Position numbers and translations under genes: made by a program. From assembly GCA_025060085.1 (NCBI GenBank), contig JANXCM010000002.1, positions 1 to 43,691 of the forward strand: a stretch of 43,691 bases of DNA. The letters are read 5' to 3'. Position 1 is the stretch's first letter. Each line of letters opens with the position of its first letter. Positions 5,326-43,519 of the stretch are shown in pieces. The notes below the pieces were generated by a model that had not been told where the DNA came from, made no database searches, and saw only the letters and a program-made list of their open reading frames with translations. This DNA comes from Patescibacteria group bacterium. GTDB taxonomy: Bacteria > Patescibacteriota > Minisyncoccia > UBA6257 > HR35.

Positions 5326-6600
5326 TTATAATTTTAATTTTTTCTTAATTTCTTGAGTTAAGTGATTAATAGCAATTATCTCTTGAGATCTTTTAACCAT
5401 ATCCTTCAAAATAGCAGTTTTATTACCAATTTCTTGATGACCAATAATTAGACAATATTTAACTCCTAATTTGTTAGCTAATTCTAATTGAGAAGAAAGA
5501 CTGGATTTGCTAAAATTTTCTAAAACAGGAATGTTATTTTTGATCAATTCATCGTAAATTTTTAAGGCGTATTCTTTTGTTTTTTCTGTAGTTTGGGCAA
5601 TAAAAATTTCTGCACTTTTAGCCATCTTTAATTTTACATTATGGATTTTTAAGATTTCAATTAATCTTTCTAAACCTATAGCTCCTCCTACAGCTGGAAT
5701 TACTTTACCTCCTAAATATTGAGCTAAGTTATCATATCTTCCACCGCCACCAATAGCAATATTTGTCTCTGGAAAGAATATTTCAAATACTGTTCTTTGA
5801 TAATAATCAAATCCCCTTACTAATGTTTGGTCTAAATCATATTTTATTTCTAAAATATCTAAATACTCTAAAGTTTTGCTAATTTGAATTTCGCAATCTT
5901 TACAAAGATAGTTTATTAAACTCGGAGCATTTTTTTTATATTCTTTACATTTTTCTTCTTTGCAGTCTAACATTCTTAATGGATTAAGATTATATCTTCT
6001 TTGACAATCCTTACAAACATTTTTTAAATTTTTTTTATAATAATTCTTTAAATCTTTAAGATATTTGTTTCTATCTTTTTTACATCCTAAACTATTAATT
6101 TTGAAAATATAATCAAATAATTTAAATTTTTTAAAAAATCTGTCAAAAACTTGAATTATTTGAGCATCATAAATAGGATCTGAGCTACCGATAATTTCTA
6201 ATCCCCATTGATGATGCTCTCGAAATCTGCCAGCTTGAGGTTTTTCTCGCCGATACATTCGATCAAGATAAAATAATTTTACCGGTTGAGGTAAAGAATG
6301 CATACCATTTTGAAGATAAGCTCTAATTACTGAAGCTGTTCCTTCTGGTTTTAAAACATATTTAATACCACCTTCTCGTTCTTTTAGATAAAACATTTCT
6401 TTTTGGATAACATCAGTTGATTGACCCAAAGATGAAGTAAAAACCCCCTCTTCTTCTAAAACTGGGGTTTGGATATAATGATAAGAGTATAATTGACTAT
6501 ATTTAATTATTTCTTCTTTCAGAGAAAGTAAAAAGTTAGCTTCGTCAAATAAAAAATCATTCATACCCCTCGGTCTTTGAAAAACAAATTTAAAACTCAT
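5326..6600 (-). CDS. hisS: histidine--tRNA ligase
   Basis: Class II aaRS motifs: PRGMNDF, YRREKPQAGRFREHHQ, GGGGRYDNL. A Cys-rich insertion and a C-terminal anticodon-binding domain are present. Confidence 0.95.
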   Translation of the reverse strand: MSFKFVFQRPRGMNDFLFDEANFLLSLKEEIIKYSQLYSYHYIQTPVLEEEGVFTSSLGQSTDVIQKEMFYLKEREGGIKYVLKPEGTASVIRAYLQNGMHSLPQPVKLFYLDRMYRREKPQAGRFREHHQWGLEIIGSSDPIYDAQIIQVFDRFFKKFKLFDYIFKINSLGCKKDRNKYLKDLKNYYKKNLKNVCKDCQRRYNLNPLRMLDCKEEKCKEYKKNAPSLINYLCKDCEIQISKTLEYLDILEIKYDLDQTLVRGFDYYQRTVFEIFFPETNIAIGGGGRYDNLAQYLGGKVIPAVGGAIGLERLIEILKIHNVKLKMAKSAEIFIAQTTEKTKEYALKIYDELIKNNIPVLENFSKSSLSSQLELANKLGVKYCLIIGHQEIGNKTAILKDMVKRSQEIIAINHLTQEIKKKLKL

Positions 6601-11644: not shown

Positions 11645-13168
<1,524 letters not shown>

Positions 13169-39886: not shown

Positions 39887-39923
39887 AAAATTTAATAGGA
39901 TAAATTCTGAAAAGATAAAAATT

Positions 39924-39932
39924 TGTTATAAT
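39924..39932 (+). promoter_or_regulatory. extended -10 element TGTTATAAT upstream of the tRNA-Gln pair
   Basis: The same 9-mer as at 2753-2761, about 100 nt before tRNA-Gln(CUG). Confidence 0.3.
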
Positions 39933-40032
39933 TAAGTTAAGAAAATAAAACTTTATTTAATTTAGAAAATAATTTAGAAAAAATTTTTTGATTGGTTAAA
40001 AAATTTGCGATTTGTTTTTTTCATTTTATTTC

Positions 40033-40103
40033 TTGCCGGGTCGTCTAATGGTAGGACACAAGGCTCTGGACCTTGGAATCTTGGTTCGAATCCAAGCCCG
40101 GCA
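40033..40103 (+). tRNA. tRNA-Gln (CUG)
   Basis: Hand-folded: TGCCGGG/CCCGGCA acceptor (U1-A72, G73 as in bacterial tRNA-Gln), anticodon arm CAAGG-CTCTGGA-CCTTG, T arm CTTGG-TTCGAAT-CCAAG. Confidence 0.85.
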
Positions 40104-40109
40104 GAAAAA

Positions 40110-40180
40110 ATGCGGGGTGGTGTAACGGTAGCACAGCGGCCTTTGGAGCCGTTAGTCTTGGTTCGAATCCAAGCCCCGCA
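40110..40180 (+). tRNA. tRNA-Gln (UUG)
   Basis: Hand-folded: TGCGGGG/CCCCGCA acceptor (U1-A72, G73), anticodon arm GCGGC-CTTTGGA-GCCGT, and the same T arm as its neighbour. It is followed by CCA (40181-40183), the only tRNA here with a templated CCA. Confidence 0.85.
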
Positions 40181-40358
40181 GCCAATTAATAATGAGTATA
40201 TTTATTTTTTTCAAAAGATATAAATAATCTCTATATAAAAAATTATTTAACTATCTTTCTTTTAATCCTTTTATTTTTTATTTATTTAAATCAAATTTAT
40301 ATTTTTTAATATTTTTTTTCAATTATTTTTTTAAAACTCTATTTTATTAGCTAAATTA

Positions 40359-40386
40359 TTGACAAAAAATTAAGTTGTGCTAAAAT
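40359..40386 (+). promoter_or_regulatory. near-consensus promoter TTGACA-N16-TGcTAAAAT
   Basis: TTGACA at 40359-40364, a 16-nt spacer ending in TG (40378-40379), TAAAAT at 40381-40386, and ATG at 40417. Confidence 0.6.
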
Positions 40387-40398
40387 TTTATTATTGGC

Positions 40399-40416
40399 AC
40401 TTTACTATAGTAAAGT
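40399..40416. promoter_or_regulatory. 18-bp perfect palindrome, candidate operator (or leader hairpin) abutting the start codon
   Basis: ACTTTACTA|TAGTAAAGT is exactly self-complementary. It lies between the -10 element and the ATG of the TrpR/YerC-like gene. Confidence 0.5.
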
Positions 40417-40737
40417 ATGAAAAATAAAAAGAATTTTTATCATTGGGTAAATAAAGAAATTGATGACCTTTTTAGTGTTATTTTGATGTTAGAAAATTTA
40501 GATGAAGCCCGAAGATTTTTTAGAGATTTATTAACTAAAAAAGAGATTATTGAATTTGCCAAAAGATGGAAAGCGGTTCAAATGTTAGCTCAAGGAATAA
40601 CCTATAAAGAAATAGAGAAAAAAACAAAAATGAGTTCAACAACCATCGCTCGGATTAATAGATGGTTAAGATCAGAGTATGGTGGTTATCGGCTTATTTT
40701 GAATAAGCTTAACAAATTCAAAGATAAGATTAATTAA
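40417..40737 (+). CDS. TrpR-like / YerC-YecD family helix-turn-helix protein
   Basis: About 100 aa. LLTKKEIIEFAKRWKAVQMLAQGITYKEIEKKTKMSSTTIARINRWL matches the Trp-repressor-fold YerC/YecD pattern. Confidence 0.75.
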   Translation: MKNKKNFYHWVNKEIDDLFSVILMLENLDEARRFFRDLLTKKEIIEFAKRWKAVQMLAQGITYKEIEKKTKMSSTTIARINRWLRSEYGGYRLILNKLNKFKDKIN

Positions 40738-40758
40738 ATTATTTTACTAAAAATAAAA

Positions 40759-41310
40759 ATGGCAGGAAGAAAAATTCAAATTGGAGTGGTAGGAGCAACT
40801 GCCGATCTTAAGTATTCTAAAAAATTGGTTAAATTAGCTGAAGAAATTGGATATTGGATTGCTAAGAAAAATGCTGTTCTAATTTTTGGAGCAGAAAAAG
40901 ATTATGATTCTTTATCTACCGCTGCTTGTCGTGGAGCTAAAAAAAATAATGGATTAACCGTTGGTATAACTTATGGTAAGGGATTAAATGTTTACGATAA
41001 TAAGAATGTTGATATAGTGATTGCTACAGGAATAGAAAGAGGAGGAGGAAGAGAATTTATTTTTATCCTTAGTTGTGATGCGGTTATTGGTATTAATGGG
41101 GGTTCGGGGACCTTAACAGAATTTGGTATTACTTATCAAGCTAATATTCCAATTGTTGTTTTAAAAAATAGTGGTGGATGGAGCGATAAATTAATAAATA
41201 CTTATCTGGATGAAAGAAAGAGAATAAAAATCGAATCTGCTAATTTACCTAAAGAAGCCGTTGAAAAAGCAATAAAATTAGCTCAAAGAAAAATTAAAAA
41301 AGAAAAATAA
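40759..41310 (+). CDS. LOG/TIGR00725-like (SLOG superfamily) Rossmann-fold nucleotide-binding protein
   Basis: IGVVGA..., AACRGAKKNNGLTVGI, GIERGGGRE, and GINGGSGTLTEF (the PGGxGTxxE-type motif). It starts 21 nt after the upstream gene. Confidence 0.7.
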   Translation: MAGRKIQIGVVGATADLKYSKKLVKLAEEIGYWIAKKNAVLIFGAEKDYDSLSTAACRGAKKNNGLTVGITYGKGLNVYDNKNVDIVIATGIERGGGREFIFILSCDAVIGINGGSGTLTEFGITYQANIPIVVLKNSGGWSDKLINTYLDERKRIKIESANLPKEAVEKAIKLAQRKIKKEK

Positions 41311-41414
41311 ACTTCATATTTAAATCAAAATTATTTCTCTAATAATGGGAAGAGATTGATTGTGATTAATTAAATTTTTAATTTTGATATTTTTCTAAAT
41401 TTTCACACTCAATC

Positions 41415-41435
41415 CCTTCTCATTTATTGAGAAGG
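41415..41435 (+). other. 8-bp hairpin at the left edge of the GC-richer island
   Basis: CCTTCTCA-tttat-TGAGAAGG. No U-tract follows, so it is not a classical terminator. Confidence 0.5.
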
Positions 41436-41446
41436 AAGCACACTAT

Positions 41447-41455
41447 AAGGAGGTG
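41447..41455 (+). promoter_or_regulatory. strong Shine-Dalgarno sequence AAGGAGGTG
   Basis: Perfect complement to a canonical anti-SD, placed 6 nt before GTG 41462. No comparable element precedes any resident intergenic start codon in the window. Confidence 0.6.
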
Positions 41456-41461
41456 AGAATT

Positions 41462-41557
41462 GTGTATATCGTTTCAGAAGACATTGTTATTTTGTTTAAA
41501 GAATGGGCAAAAAGAAACGGATTTCTTTTGCCCCTCGTTTATTTTTTGAAGCATTGA
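41462..41557 (+). other. 31-codon GTG-initiated frame overlapping the PRTase ATG out of frame (upstream ORF, or the displaced original N-terminus)
   Basis: VYIVSEDIVILFKEWAKRNGFLLPLVYFLKH, stop at 41555-41557. It overlaps the 41503 ORF by 55 nt. Confidence 0.4.
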
Positions 41558-42354
41558 GGAAAAAATTTGCGAGCTTCGTCTCGCAAATTTTTCCCAATTT
41601 TGTTTTCCTAAAAGAGGGAGACCTCTTGAGGGATCTCTCTTCTATACTAACTACTATCCAAAGAGAAGTTATAGTTTCTTTGGATAGAGTGTATACTCCT
41701 CTTCTTAAGGATGAGATAGGGGAAGTGTTTTATCTTGATGTTACCCGCCTCGTTAATGAAGTGGGTGAAAGTAGAGGTTATGGAGCTCGTTGGGGAACTC
41801 CGTCTATCGAGGAGCAAATAGAAAAATTACCTTCTCTTCTCAAGAAGGAGAGAAAAGATGTCGTTCTTGTTGACGATGTGATTTTTTCTGGTTCCCTAGT
41901 TGAAAGACTCGTAGGAGTTTTTTTAAATGAGGGAGTCAGAGTTGATTGCGTTGTTGCCGCCATCGGAATAGGTGGCGGCATTGAAAGAGTTAAAAGATTA
42001 GGGGTAAAAGTTCTTTGCGCACACACCTTTGACAGTGTTGTCGATCAAGTGTGCGAGAGGGATTTTTATCCCGGTACACCATTTTGTGGTCGCACTCTCG
42101 AAAGTGCAACTGAAAATATAGGTGTTCCTTATCTACTTCCTTGGGGGAAACCCCATAAGTGGGCTTCCATCCCGAGGGATAAGGAAAAGGAATTTTCCAT
42201 TTTTTGTATCGAGCAAACACTTAACTTGTTTGAGGCTATTGAAAAGGCCTCAGGTAGGGAAGTGTTATGCTCAGATTTAGAAAGGAGAACGATTGGTATG
42301 CTTCCCGAAGAAAGAGTAGTTGACTTTCTTCGGGCTAACCTGACGAGGTTGTGA
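41503..42354 (+). CDS. phosphoribosyltransferase-like protein (PRPP-binding motif), compositionally foreign
   Basis: KDVVLVDDVIFSGSLVERL is a type I PRTase PRPP loop. G+C is about 41% by hand count, against about 28% for the neighbours. The N-terminus is uncertain (see the upstream GTG frame). Confidence 0.7.
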   Translation: MGKKKRISFAPRLFFEALRKKFASFVSQIFPNFVFLKEGDLLRDLSSILTTIQREVIVSLDRVYTPLLKDEIGEVFYLDVTRLVNEVGESRGYGARWGTPSIEEQIEKLPSLLKKERKDVVLVDDVIFSGSLVERLVGVFLNEGVRVDCVVAAIGIGGGIERVKRLGVKVLCAHTFDSVVDQVCERDFYPGTPFCGRTLESATENIGVPYLLPWGKPHKWASIPRDKEKEFSIFCIEQTLNLFEAIEKASGREVLCSDLERRTIGMLPEERVVDFLRANLTRL

Positions 42355-42378
42355 ACCCGTCAAATTTTTAAATTTTTT

Positions 42379-42416
42379 GAGCCGATAAGTTTTCAACTGT
42401 CGGCTCTTTTTTATTT
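42379..42416 (+). terminator. rho-independent terminator
   Basis: GAGCCGA...TCGGCTC stem followed by TTTTTTATTT, 25 nt after the PRTase stop. Confidence 0.7.
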
Positions 42417-42514
42417 GAAAAAAATAAGATTAAAATTTTTCAGATTAAAATAATGTATAAATAGAATTTTTTATTTTTTTAAATTTAAAAATATGATATT
42501 ATGTTATTATTTTT

Positions 42515-43519
42515 ATGAAAACTATAGGTTTTTGTGGTTTGCCTAATAGTGGTAAATCGACACTTTTAAAACTATTAACTAAAACAGAAACATTAATTGC
42601 TAATTATCCTTTTACAACTATTTCTCCTAAATTAGCTAGAGGATTTTTTATTTCTAATAATTTACTTCAACTTCATTCTTTAACCAAAACTCCTGAAATT
42701 AGACCTGCTTATTTAAATTTTTTAGATGTTCCGGGTTTAATTAGAGGTTCACACAAAGGATTAGGATTAGGCAATGAATTTTTAAGCTATTTAAGACAAA
42801 GTGATATTATTTTAGAAATTATTCGCAATTTTAAAAGAGAAGATGTAATTCATAGCGAAGGCGAAGTAGATCCAGAAAGAGATATTTTGTTGATTGAAGA
42901 AGAAATATTACAGTCAGAAAAAAAAATTATTGAGGAAAATTTACAAAAAATTAAACGTCAACCAGCTAAAAAAGATTTAGCTGAAAAATTTATATTTATT
43001 CTAGATAATCTTCAGCCATTTAAAAGATTCCCCGAATTAAAAAAAGATTTAAAAGAATACAATCTTCTCCTTACTAAGGACTGGTTTTTAATCTTTAATG
43101 GTGATTTAAAAATAGATAAAAAAAATTTTGAAAATCTATGTTTTAAATCTATCTATCAATTAGACTTTCAATTTGAATTAGAACTTCAAGAAAATAGAGA
43201 GCTTCAAAAAGAATATCCATCTCAAGTTAATGATTTATTAAATCAGATTAAAAAAGATATTGATTTAATAGAATTTTTTACCTTTACAGATGAAATTACC
43301 CAATCTTGGTTAATAGAAAGGGATAACTATTTAATTAAATCAGCAGAACTAATTCACTCCGATTTTGCTAAAAAATTTAAATCTGCTGAGGTTATTAATA
43401 TTAAACAATTTTTGATTCATAAAAAAAATTGGTCTGAACTTAAAAACTTAGGTCTATTAAAGCAAGTAGGTAGAGATTATTGTATTGAAGAAGGTGATAT
43501 TATTAGAATTATTATTTAG
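42515..43519 (+). CDS. ychF: Obg-like ribosome-binding ATPase YchF
   Basis: GFCGLPNSGKSTL (G1), NYPFTTISP, DVPGLIRGSHKGLGLGNEFL (G3 and YchF signature), and a C-terminal TGS-like domain. Confidence 0.9.
   Translation: MKTIGFCGLPNSGKSTLLKLLTKTETLIANYPFTTISPKLARGFFISNNLLQLHSLTKTPEIRPAYLNFLDVPGLIRGSHKGLGLGNEFLSYLRQSDIILEIIRNFKREDVIHSEGEVDPERDILLIEEEILQSEKKIIEENLQKIKRQPAKKDLAEKFIFILDNLQPFKRFPELKKDLKEYNLLLTKDWFLIFNGDLKIDKKNFENLCFKSIYQLDFQFELELQENRELQKEYPSQVNDLLNQIKKDIDLIEFFTFTDEITQSWLIERDNYLIKSAELIHSDFAKKFKSAEVINIKQFLIHKKNWSELKNLGLLKQVGRDYCIEEGDIIRIII

Follow-up and report, generated by a model that had tools for sequence, protein, structure and literature searches.

A conserved SLOG-phosphoribosyltransferase gene pair of Patescibacteria and reduced-genome Bacilli with signs of control by histidine shortage

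The enterobacterial his leader is a leader-peptide transcription attenuator of an amino-acid operon, with a short open reading frame (ORF) of tandem His codons, helices 1:2, 2:3 and 3:4 that exclude one another and a U-run terminator, while the LOG and PpnN phosphoribohydrolases and the TIGR00725/Moco-carrier clade have in common a SLOG Rossmann-like fold, a GGxGTxxE motif and an upstream Arg. In B. subtilis, YerC is HisR, a histidine-dependent and often autoregulatory repressor with the consensus cacTTTAnnnnnnTAAAgtg (PMC9413887), a 20-bp palindrome of the form cacTTTA-N6-TAAAgtg (Ashniev et al. 2022, PMC9413887), and the HisR regulons described, from Firmicutes and a small number of further phyla, comprise genes for histidine biosynthesis and transport, His attenuators being noted in the same study (PMC9413887). 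Here we describe a locus at which relatives of these parts meet: three co-directional genes for a YerC-family regulator, a SLOG protein and a phosphoribosyltransferase (PRTase)-like protein, in a 43,691-nucleotide stretch of DNA (the window; contig JANXCM010000002.1 of assembly GCA_025060085.1, a Patescibacteria group bacterium) that has a GC content of ~27% and comes from a hot-spring metagenome. We think it somewhat probable that the window holds a copy of a conserved SLOG-PRTase module of the Candidate Phyla Radiation (CPR)/Patescibacteria and of reduced-genome Bacilli that responds to histidine starvation. The regulatory logic of this module is well supported, whereas its chemistry is proposed from folds, neighbours and regulation only.

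The initial annotation of the window had taken the three genes as one functional unit, and gene-neighbourhood mining bears this out by wide recurrence. We assembled 52 non-redundant related loci (given L-numbers; 48 are species representatives) from CPR/Patescibacteria and reduced Bacilli. In 46 of them a SLOG gene lies no more than ~3.5 kb from the PRTase gene, whereas a YerC gene accompanies the module in 14, all from CPR, indicating that the SLOG-PRTase pair is the core of the module and the regulator an accessory. The order YerC-SLOG-PRTase recurs on unrelated CPR contigs and PRTase-SLOG without YerC is found on others, while metagenome-assembled genomes of Bacilli, Clostridia and Mollicutes have the order PRTase-SLOG, often followed by hisS. 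Two histidine-related genes recur beside the module with equivalog cut-offs passed: hisS in 16 of the 52 loci, spread over both phyla and variously arranged, and hutH in eight.

The first gene of the window was confirmed by profile searches as a YerC/YecD protein with the Trp-repressor fold, scoring above the curated cut-offs of TIGR02531 (76.4 bits against 42.2) and of the Pfam family Trp_repressor (PF01371; 72.6 bits against 27, E = 2.8e-20). The perfect 18-bp palindrome ACTTTACTATAGTAAAGT (40399-40416), which ends at the yerC ATG (40417) as first described, lies inside a 20-bp sequence that closely follows the published HisR consensus (Table 1). Read as CACTTTA-N6-TAAAGTG, the box has this site as its sole match in the 43.7-kb window, with one mismatch, where shuffled sequences lead us to expect 0.02 matches per window. 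With at most two mismatches it abuts the yerC start in 11 of the 14 yerC loci, so that the suggestion of an operator at the regulator's own start gains support from conservation, and a second box abuts the SLOG gene in four loci (L007, L012, L016 and L019). Since the box overlaps the -10 hexamer in most loci, a DNA operator is favoured over an RNA hairpin. The window regulator thus shares with HisR its family (TIGR02531), the 20-bp palindrome and an autoregulatory site at its own gene, and the CPR proteins retain a HisR-like recognition helix; the window protein belongs to a CPR subclade with invariant F(F/L)RD and LLTExE..RW motifs. Whereas HisR regulons target histidine biosynthesis or transport, the target in CPR is the SLOG gene: the related loci showed no genes for histidine biosynthesis or transport, and the only HisR box of the window precedes yerC-SLOG.

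A second layer of control is encoded between the SLOG and PRTase genes. In relatives this spacer is conserved and contains the coding sequence of a short peptide, which has His codons in tandem and ends in a conserved tail (…HHH..LFLEEIGCG followed by a stop codon, e.g. MNLKNKVSINVHHHNRLFLEEIGCG), as well as four mutually complementary segments. In a 12-sequence alignment the antiterminator helix is 90% paired with compensatory change at 8 pairs, and the terminator helix, with a U-run behind it, is 98% paired and has compensatory change at 3 pairs, compared with 39-67% pairing in slid controls. The His codons lie just 5' of segment 1 and the leader stop codon just past segment 2, a layout that, judged from the alignment, is that of a classical attenuator such as the enterobacterial his leader. 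Matches to a profile of this element lie directly 5' of the PRTase gene, or of GNAT/AstE-PRTase, in 16 CPR loci. In L013 (2766-2915), hisS has its own His-codon leader peptide (MKLIFQTTANHTHTLSLVRNGLSW and a stop), ahead of a perfect terminator hairpin with a T-rich tract, and CPR therefore seem to use leader-peptide attenuation for hisS too. Bacilli have a separate conserved His leader (..HHHNNLHLLIRH and a stop) with a terminator, found in 12 Bacilli loci. What sets these attenuators apart from known his attenuators is the gene under their control, a PRTase that is uncharacterised (and hisS in L013), and their occurrence in organisms that are not known to make their own histidine. A search of the window and 30 related loci with Rfam at gathering thresholds detected neither a T-box nor a PyrR site nor a riboswitch in the leaders, its only matches being tRNAs, 16S rRNA and one fluoride riboswitch. 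The latter (L009:5991-6059, Woesebacteria; 41.1 bits, above the gathering score) sits just 3' of the PRTase gene and probably belongs to the next gene.

Histidine codons also mark the PRTase gene itself in Bacilli. In 22 Bacilli-type loci (L033, L034, L036, L038-L041, L046-L048, L050-L053, L067-L069, L071, L072, L074, L076 and L078) the gene is split at a conserved TAT-CCC-CAT (e.g. L048:4990-5020), with the catalytic core in the +1 frame. The CCCC run at this site permits re-pairing of tRNA-Pro, the next zero-frame codon is always His, a GGGAGG lies 3 nt 5' of the shift site in some loci, and in three loci no start codon precedes the site in the +1 frame. From these features TAT-CCC-CAT is a candidate +1 frameshift site at which histidine starvation may be the trigger. 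The programmed +1 frameshift of prfB (RF2) is built from an SD-like element, a shift-prone codon and a slowly decoded A-site codon, which have counterparts at the Bacilli sites, the SD-like element in some loci; however, the slow codon of prfB is a stop codon and that of the Bacilli sites a His codon (CCC_CAU), so that the predicted shift would report histidine shortage.

The SLOG protein points to the same amino acid by its composition. Histidine makes up 0.12% of the residues of the SLOG family but 1.75% of those of neighbouring proteins; it is absent from 37 of 45 members, the window protein has 0 in 183 residues, and His is the only residue so strongly depleted. This is the pattern expected of proteins that are made during histidine starvation. 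As for its identity, the window protein matches SLOG cluster4 (PF18306) with 109.6 bits against a gathering score of 26.3. It had been described as a LOG/TIGR00725-type protein with a GGSGTLTE motif, of which the SLOG domain and the motif stand, whereas the cut-offs of TIGR00725 (87.4 against 106.9) and of the LOG models (TIGR00730, 22.3 against 96.35; LOG equivalog, 24.9 against 300) were missed. Over 47 sequences of the family, GGSGTLTE and GGGRE, which holds the upstream Arg, are nearly invariant and the LOG-type Arg and Glu are retained, whereas the LOG glycine motif is replaced by GAEKDYDSLST in the window protein (family form GAEKDYxSLST). Among solved structures it is closest to TM1055 (1RCU) and to the Moco carrier proteins 6Y01 and 2IZ5 (E = 1e-10 to 1e-12). 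The window protein therefore shares the fold, GGxGTxxE and upstream Arg of the LOG/PpnN enzymes and of the TIGR00725/Moco-carrier clade, but departs from LOG/PpnN in its sub-cut-off scores, in the altered glycine-rich motif and in belonging to a histidine-free, very conserved family. This conservation is unusual, with 67-77% identity among SLOG proteins as opposed to 42-48% for the PRTase, and the subfamily is large (>2,800 matches with E up to 1e-20).

The third protein carries the type I PRTase loop for phosphoribosyl pyrophosphate (PRPP) that had been recognised in it (VVLVDDVIFSGS), with its invariant residues intact (D124, D125 and G130, invariant in 75 sequences). No Pfam or NCBIfam PRTase model reached its cut-off for this gene (PF00156, 17.5 against 26.3; NCBIfam models far below). 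Membership of PRTase-CE (PF24390) was considered and rejected: the window protein scored 15.7 against 27, and matches across the family are confined to the PRPP-loop region and do not exceed the cut-off. An AlphaFold model (pLDDT, the predicted local distance difference test, 93.9) has a type I PRTase core, for which Foldseek returned APRT, XPRT and OPRT (E = 2e-6; target-normalised template-modelling score 0.52-0.55). The core fold and the acidic PRPP loop (VLVDDVIFSG) are those of type I PRTases (APRT, XPRT, OPRT, UPRT, PyrR), in contrast to which the window protein has an extra ~55-aa N-terminal helical region and a family-specific C-terminal domain of ~100 residues with its own invariant motifs, CERDFYPG and PY.P.G.P..WASIP. 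The family comprises ~360 clusters at 50% identity (E up to 1e-30) and includes fusion proteins with an N-terminal HAD phosphatase (P0125, 516 aa) or an N-terminal GNAT acetyltransferase (P0082, 475 aa). These natural fusions link the HAD and GNAT neighbour families functionally to the PRTase. Recurrent neighbours besides hisS and hutH are HAD phosphatases (5'-nucleotidase-like), a PfkB kinase, a uridine-phosphorylase-like protein, GNAT proteins and an AstE/AspA-like deacylase. Two further recurrent neighbour families, of ~305 and ~313 aa, occur in four and three loci, respectively, inside SLOG..PRTase operons (L045:2387-3304; L017:3164-4105), and showed no Pfam, NCBIfam, PDB or PRTase-profile similarity.

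In the window itself, the tRNA-Gln pair, the three co-directional genes behind it and the near-consensus promoter are all present as annotated (Table 1), the promoter being the sole 11/12 hexamer match and the best in a scan of 39900-42600; the SLOG gene begins 21 nt 3' of the yerC end. The third gene had been placed at ATG 41503 behind a 192-nt spacer. That ORF exists, but PRTase homologues begin M..PYVVSxDIxLLxxWAxxxGFxLPxxxFFxxLR, the first part of which the window encodes from GTG 41462, in another frame than ATG 41503. Judged from this homology, ATG 41503 is not the real start of the gene and GTG 41462, behind AAGGAGGTGA, is the true one; the SLOG-PRTase spacer is therefore 151 nt. The terminator-like hairpin downstream of the gene was missed by the sequence scan because its loop exceeds 8 nt. 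Elsewhere in the window, a histidyl-tRNA synthetase homologue lies at 5326-6600 (-), 35 kb from the module, with no His-codon leader seen nearby.

Table 1. Coordinates of the module and its flanking features in the window
Feature	Position	Strand	Details and basis
tRNA-Gln(CTG)	40033-40105		
tRNA-Gln(TTG)	40111-40184		
Sigma-70-type promoter, TTGACA-N16-TGcTAAAAT	40359-40386	+	11/12 hexamer positions plus TG extension
HisR/YerC-type operator, CACTTTACTATAGTAAAGTA	40398-40417		13/14 specified positions of published HisR consensus
yerC-family regulator, TrpR-fold, 106 aa	40417-40737	+	TIGR02531, PF01371
Possible decayed second box at SLOG start, TATTTTA-N7-TAAAAAT	40740-40760		Wrong spacing, 4 flank mismatches; read from sequence
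SLOG cluster-4 protein, 183 aa	40759-41310	+	PF18306
His leader attenuator remnant, degenerate	41346-41437	+	Alignment, nhmmer, fold
Attenuator remnant, segment 2	41346-41364	+	
Attenuator remnant, segment 3	41402-41420	+	
Attenuator remnant, downstream arm	41428-41437	+	
Shine-Dalgarno AAGGAGGTGA and true GTG start (41462) of PRTase-like gene	41447-41464	+	
N-terminal fragment ORF, VYIVSEDIVILFKEWAKRNGFLLP.., 31 codons and stop	41462-41557	+	Homologous to family N-terminus
PRTase-like main ORF	41503-42354	+	Family homology from ~41533
Frame-break zone, -1 shift needed	41531-41548	+	CCCC run and candidate slippery T_TTT_TTG (41542-41548)
16-bp hairpin, -17.8 kcal/mol	41558-41595	+	Starts 9 nt past T_TTT_TTG
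Terminator-like hairpin, GAGCCGA..TCGGCTC then T6	42380-42413	+	Read from sequence

The frame opened by GTG 41462 stops at 41555-41557 and the remaining PRTase continues in the -1 frame, with the break near codon 24. An independent Logan assembly (L058, from a run of the same study, depth ~6) is identical across the frame break. At L058:787-793, corresponding to window positions 42260 and 42266, it has A>G and T>G, the latter turning a Leu codon into TGA at residue 255 of the PRTase ORF, so that a nonsense allele co-exists in the population. Loss of 1 nt from the C-run or the T-run could account for the break, and no relative of the window PRTase above 47% identity was found in any collection searched to test its conservation. 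The divergence of the window PRTase from its homologues is normal for the family, and if the gene is a pseudogene it is thus a young one. Upstream of it, an nhmmer match to the attenuator (41346-41422, E = 1e-6), whose predicted fold retains the 2:3 helix, marks a remnant of the leader. As far as can be read from the DNA, yerC, the operator and the SLOG gene are intact in the window and the PRTase arm is damaged, by the frame break and the degenerate attenuator. The initial annotation had named, as fatal to its proposal, a third gene that is an unexpressed pseudogene unrelated to its neighbours: the gene is indeed frameshifted behind a degenerate leader, but it is clearly related to its neighbours, because the SLOG-PRTase pair is conserved elsewhere.

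It is possible, although we rather doubt it, that ribosomes get past the frame break of the window copy by a programmed -1 shift at T_TTT_TTG, with the hairpin at 41558-41595 as the stimulatory element. Slippery heptamer, 9-nt spacer and 16-bp stem are all present, a -1 shift yields precisely the family spacing GFxLPxxxFFxxLR, the 283-codon ORF has stayed open, with every invariant residue kept and family-normal divergence, and the Bacilli homologues appear to use recoding. However, no other CPR homologue is broken at the same position, a 1-nt loss in the C-run or T-run accounts for the spacing equally well, the leader upstream is degenerate, an allele with a premature stop codon co-exists, and the hairpin is one of many in the PRTase gene.

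The latter point reflects an anomaly of the PRTase gene as a whole, which has 42% GC and a GC content at third codon positions (GC3) of 0.35, as opposed to 25-31% GC and a GC3 of 0.12-0.24 in its neighbours. For the window the corresponding figures are 27% GC and a GC3 of ~0.13. RNA folding relative to dinucleotide shuffles gave z-scores of -15.7 for 41440-42400 and -13.8 for the PRTase coding sequence (antisense -9.2), compared with +0.8 to -3.0 for other genes of the window, and many perfect hairpins are found in the gene (41558-41595, 41652-41689, 42304-42334). Homologous PRTase genes follow a weaker trend (fold z -6.8 in L007 and -7.2 in L008; control genes -1.7 ± 1.3). In about ten CPR loci (L007, L008, L012, L016, L018-L021, L031 and L045) the PRTase gene is richer in GC than its locus, mostly by ~7-12 points, several of these genes are unusually structured (z -4 to -7), and in several the GC3 lies above that of the SLOG gene next to it, by as much as 0.27. 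Substitutions within the coding-sequence hairpins of a strain that is 90-95% identical (X3) gave a mixed picture, 8 preserving pairs, 5 breaking them and 9 being unpaired. Horizontal transfer of the window PRTase gene is possible as a cause of this GC island, but no donor-like relative was found and the divergence is family-normal. The other GC peak of the window, at 12-13 kb, is a full-length bacterial 16S rRNA gene (11645-13168 (-), 1427.8 bits).

Taking these data together, we favour the following scheme for a histidine-starvation-responsive SLOG-PRTase module. In the presence of its effector, the YerC repressor would shut off yerC-SLOG. A shortage of charged tRNA-His would stall ribosomes on the His codons of the leader, upon which the antiterminator would form and the PRTase gene would be transcribed. 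With low certainty, the PRTase may then couple PRPP to histidine or a histidine-derived imidazole compound, and the LOG-like SLOG protein may split such a ribotide into base and ribose 5-phosphate, while the neighbouring HAD phosphatases, PfkB kinase and nucleoside phosphorylase may interconvert ribotide, riboside and base; at the same low certainty, the module as a whole could serve organisms that make no histidine as a means of acquiring or buffering it. As the substrate, our best guess would be an imidazole ribotide related to histidine. We put forward only tentatively, as something that may well prove otherwise, that the module is an unrecognised PRPP-dependent route by which presumed auxotrophs obtain, store or release histidine via an imidazole or histidine ribotide, and that up to three sensors gate it (HisR-like repressor, His leader attenuator and Bacilli +1 frameshift). 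The parts are of known kinds (HisR-type operator, leader attenuator, PRTase and SLOG), and their combination and implied function appear to be new: we found no paper that describes the SLOG-PRTase module or links these genes to histidine, in keeping with the initial view of an undescribed arrangement, and database matches to the module proteins are annotated as hypothetical, LOG family or TIGR00725 family.

Several points weigh against this scheme. Compared with the three HisR-type relatives of known structure (3FRW, 3G1C and 3KOR), all CPR YerC members replace shared acidic residues on the putative effector side, FFED becoming FFRD and CT.NE..SQRFE becoming LLTExE..RWK, and because these residues are conserved in the relatives, the effector of the CPR proteins may not be histidine. 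The window attenuator is without His codons, terminator 3' arm and U-run, and a stop interrupts its leader ORF, so that the case for histidine control of the window PRTase comes from its relatives only. A bond-making and a bond-breaking enzyme acting on the same compound form a futile cycle unless other steps intervene, and hutH, which degrades histidine, fits awkwardly with a role in histidine supply. The scheme further assumes that the organisms which carry the module do not synthesise histidine, as CPR in general are not known to do.

Ordinary purine or pyrimidine salvage would also make use of such a pair, as a divergent base-salvage PRTase and a PpnN/LOG-like nucleosidase whose histidine control reflects the known link that PRPP, ATP and aminoimidazole carboxamide ribonucleotide (AICAR) form between histidine and purine metabolism. 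The closest folds of the PRTase (APRT, XPRT, OPRT and UPRT), the uridine-phosphorylase-like, PfkB nucleoside-kinase-like and 5'-nucleotidase-like HAD neighbours and the dependence of CPR on salvage agree with it. We nevertheless hold this reading to be unlikely, given that no salvage PRTase model reaches its cut-off, that the family has its own invariant C-terminal motifs, and that the leaders are specific for His in two phyla, hisS and hutH are adjacent and the depletion of residues is specific to His. On the other hand, control by a His attenuator and a HisR-type repressor, together with scarcity of the cognate residue, is classically the signature of a biosynthetic enzyme, and PRPP supplies the carbon skeleton of histidine; the PRTase could thus replace HisG (ATP/AMP plus PRPP) in a non-orthologous first step of histidine synthesis, with SLOG processing the product and the hosts wrongly scored as auxotrophs. 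The recurrent neighbours in the 52 loci include no hisA, hisF, hisH, hisB, hisC, hisD or hisI, and loci of 2-6 genes are too small for a pathway, which makes this improbable. Very improbable, in our view, is an action of the pair on tRNA-His or HisRS (for example on the 5'-monophosphate G-1 end), or a PyrR/PurR-like role of the PRTase as PRPP-sensing regulator. Sensing of charged tRNA-His by the attenuators, the operon of hisS with the pair in Bacilli, the unusual conservation of SLOG relative to the PRTase and the presence of PyrR, weakly, among the best PDB profile matches of the PRTase can be cited in its favour; the HAD and GNAT fusions and the kinase and phosphorylase neighbours point instead to small-molecule metabolism, no PyrR site was matched in Rfam, and peptide and helices explain the leader. 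Finally, the reading as a nucleotide-derived signal, toxin, base-exchange or defence module, with which the initial annotation began, hardly survives: SLOG and PRTase domains do occur in conflict systems and there were sub-threshold matches to Pfam PRTase-CE and PADLOC PRTase_III-A, but PADLOC defence models gave no significant match to the module, only noise, the neighbours are housekeeping genes, a single copy is conserved in minimal genomes, and HisR box, His leaders, hisS/hutH neighbours and His-free SLOG point to histidine shortage.

CPR/Patescibacteria and reduced gut Bacilli are regarded as dependent on their hosts for amino acids, and most of their conserved genes of unknown function carry no functional clue. 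With the SLOG-PRTase module, two uncharacterised families gain from four independent kinds of data a specific and testable context, histidine shortage. If the scheme is correct, classical leader-peptide attenuation would be seen at work in CPR, and the Bacilli site may prove to be a naturally occurring frameshift that is set off by starvation for an amino acid; if the proposed chemistry is also true, the pair would represent a new PRPP-dependent branch of histidine metabolism.

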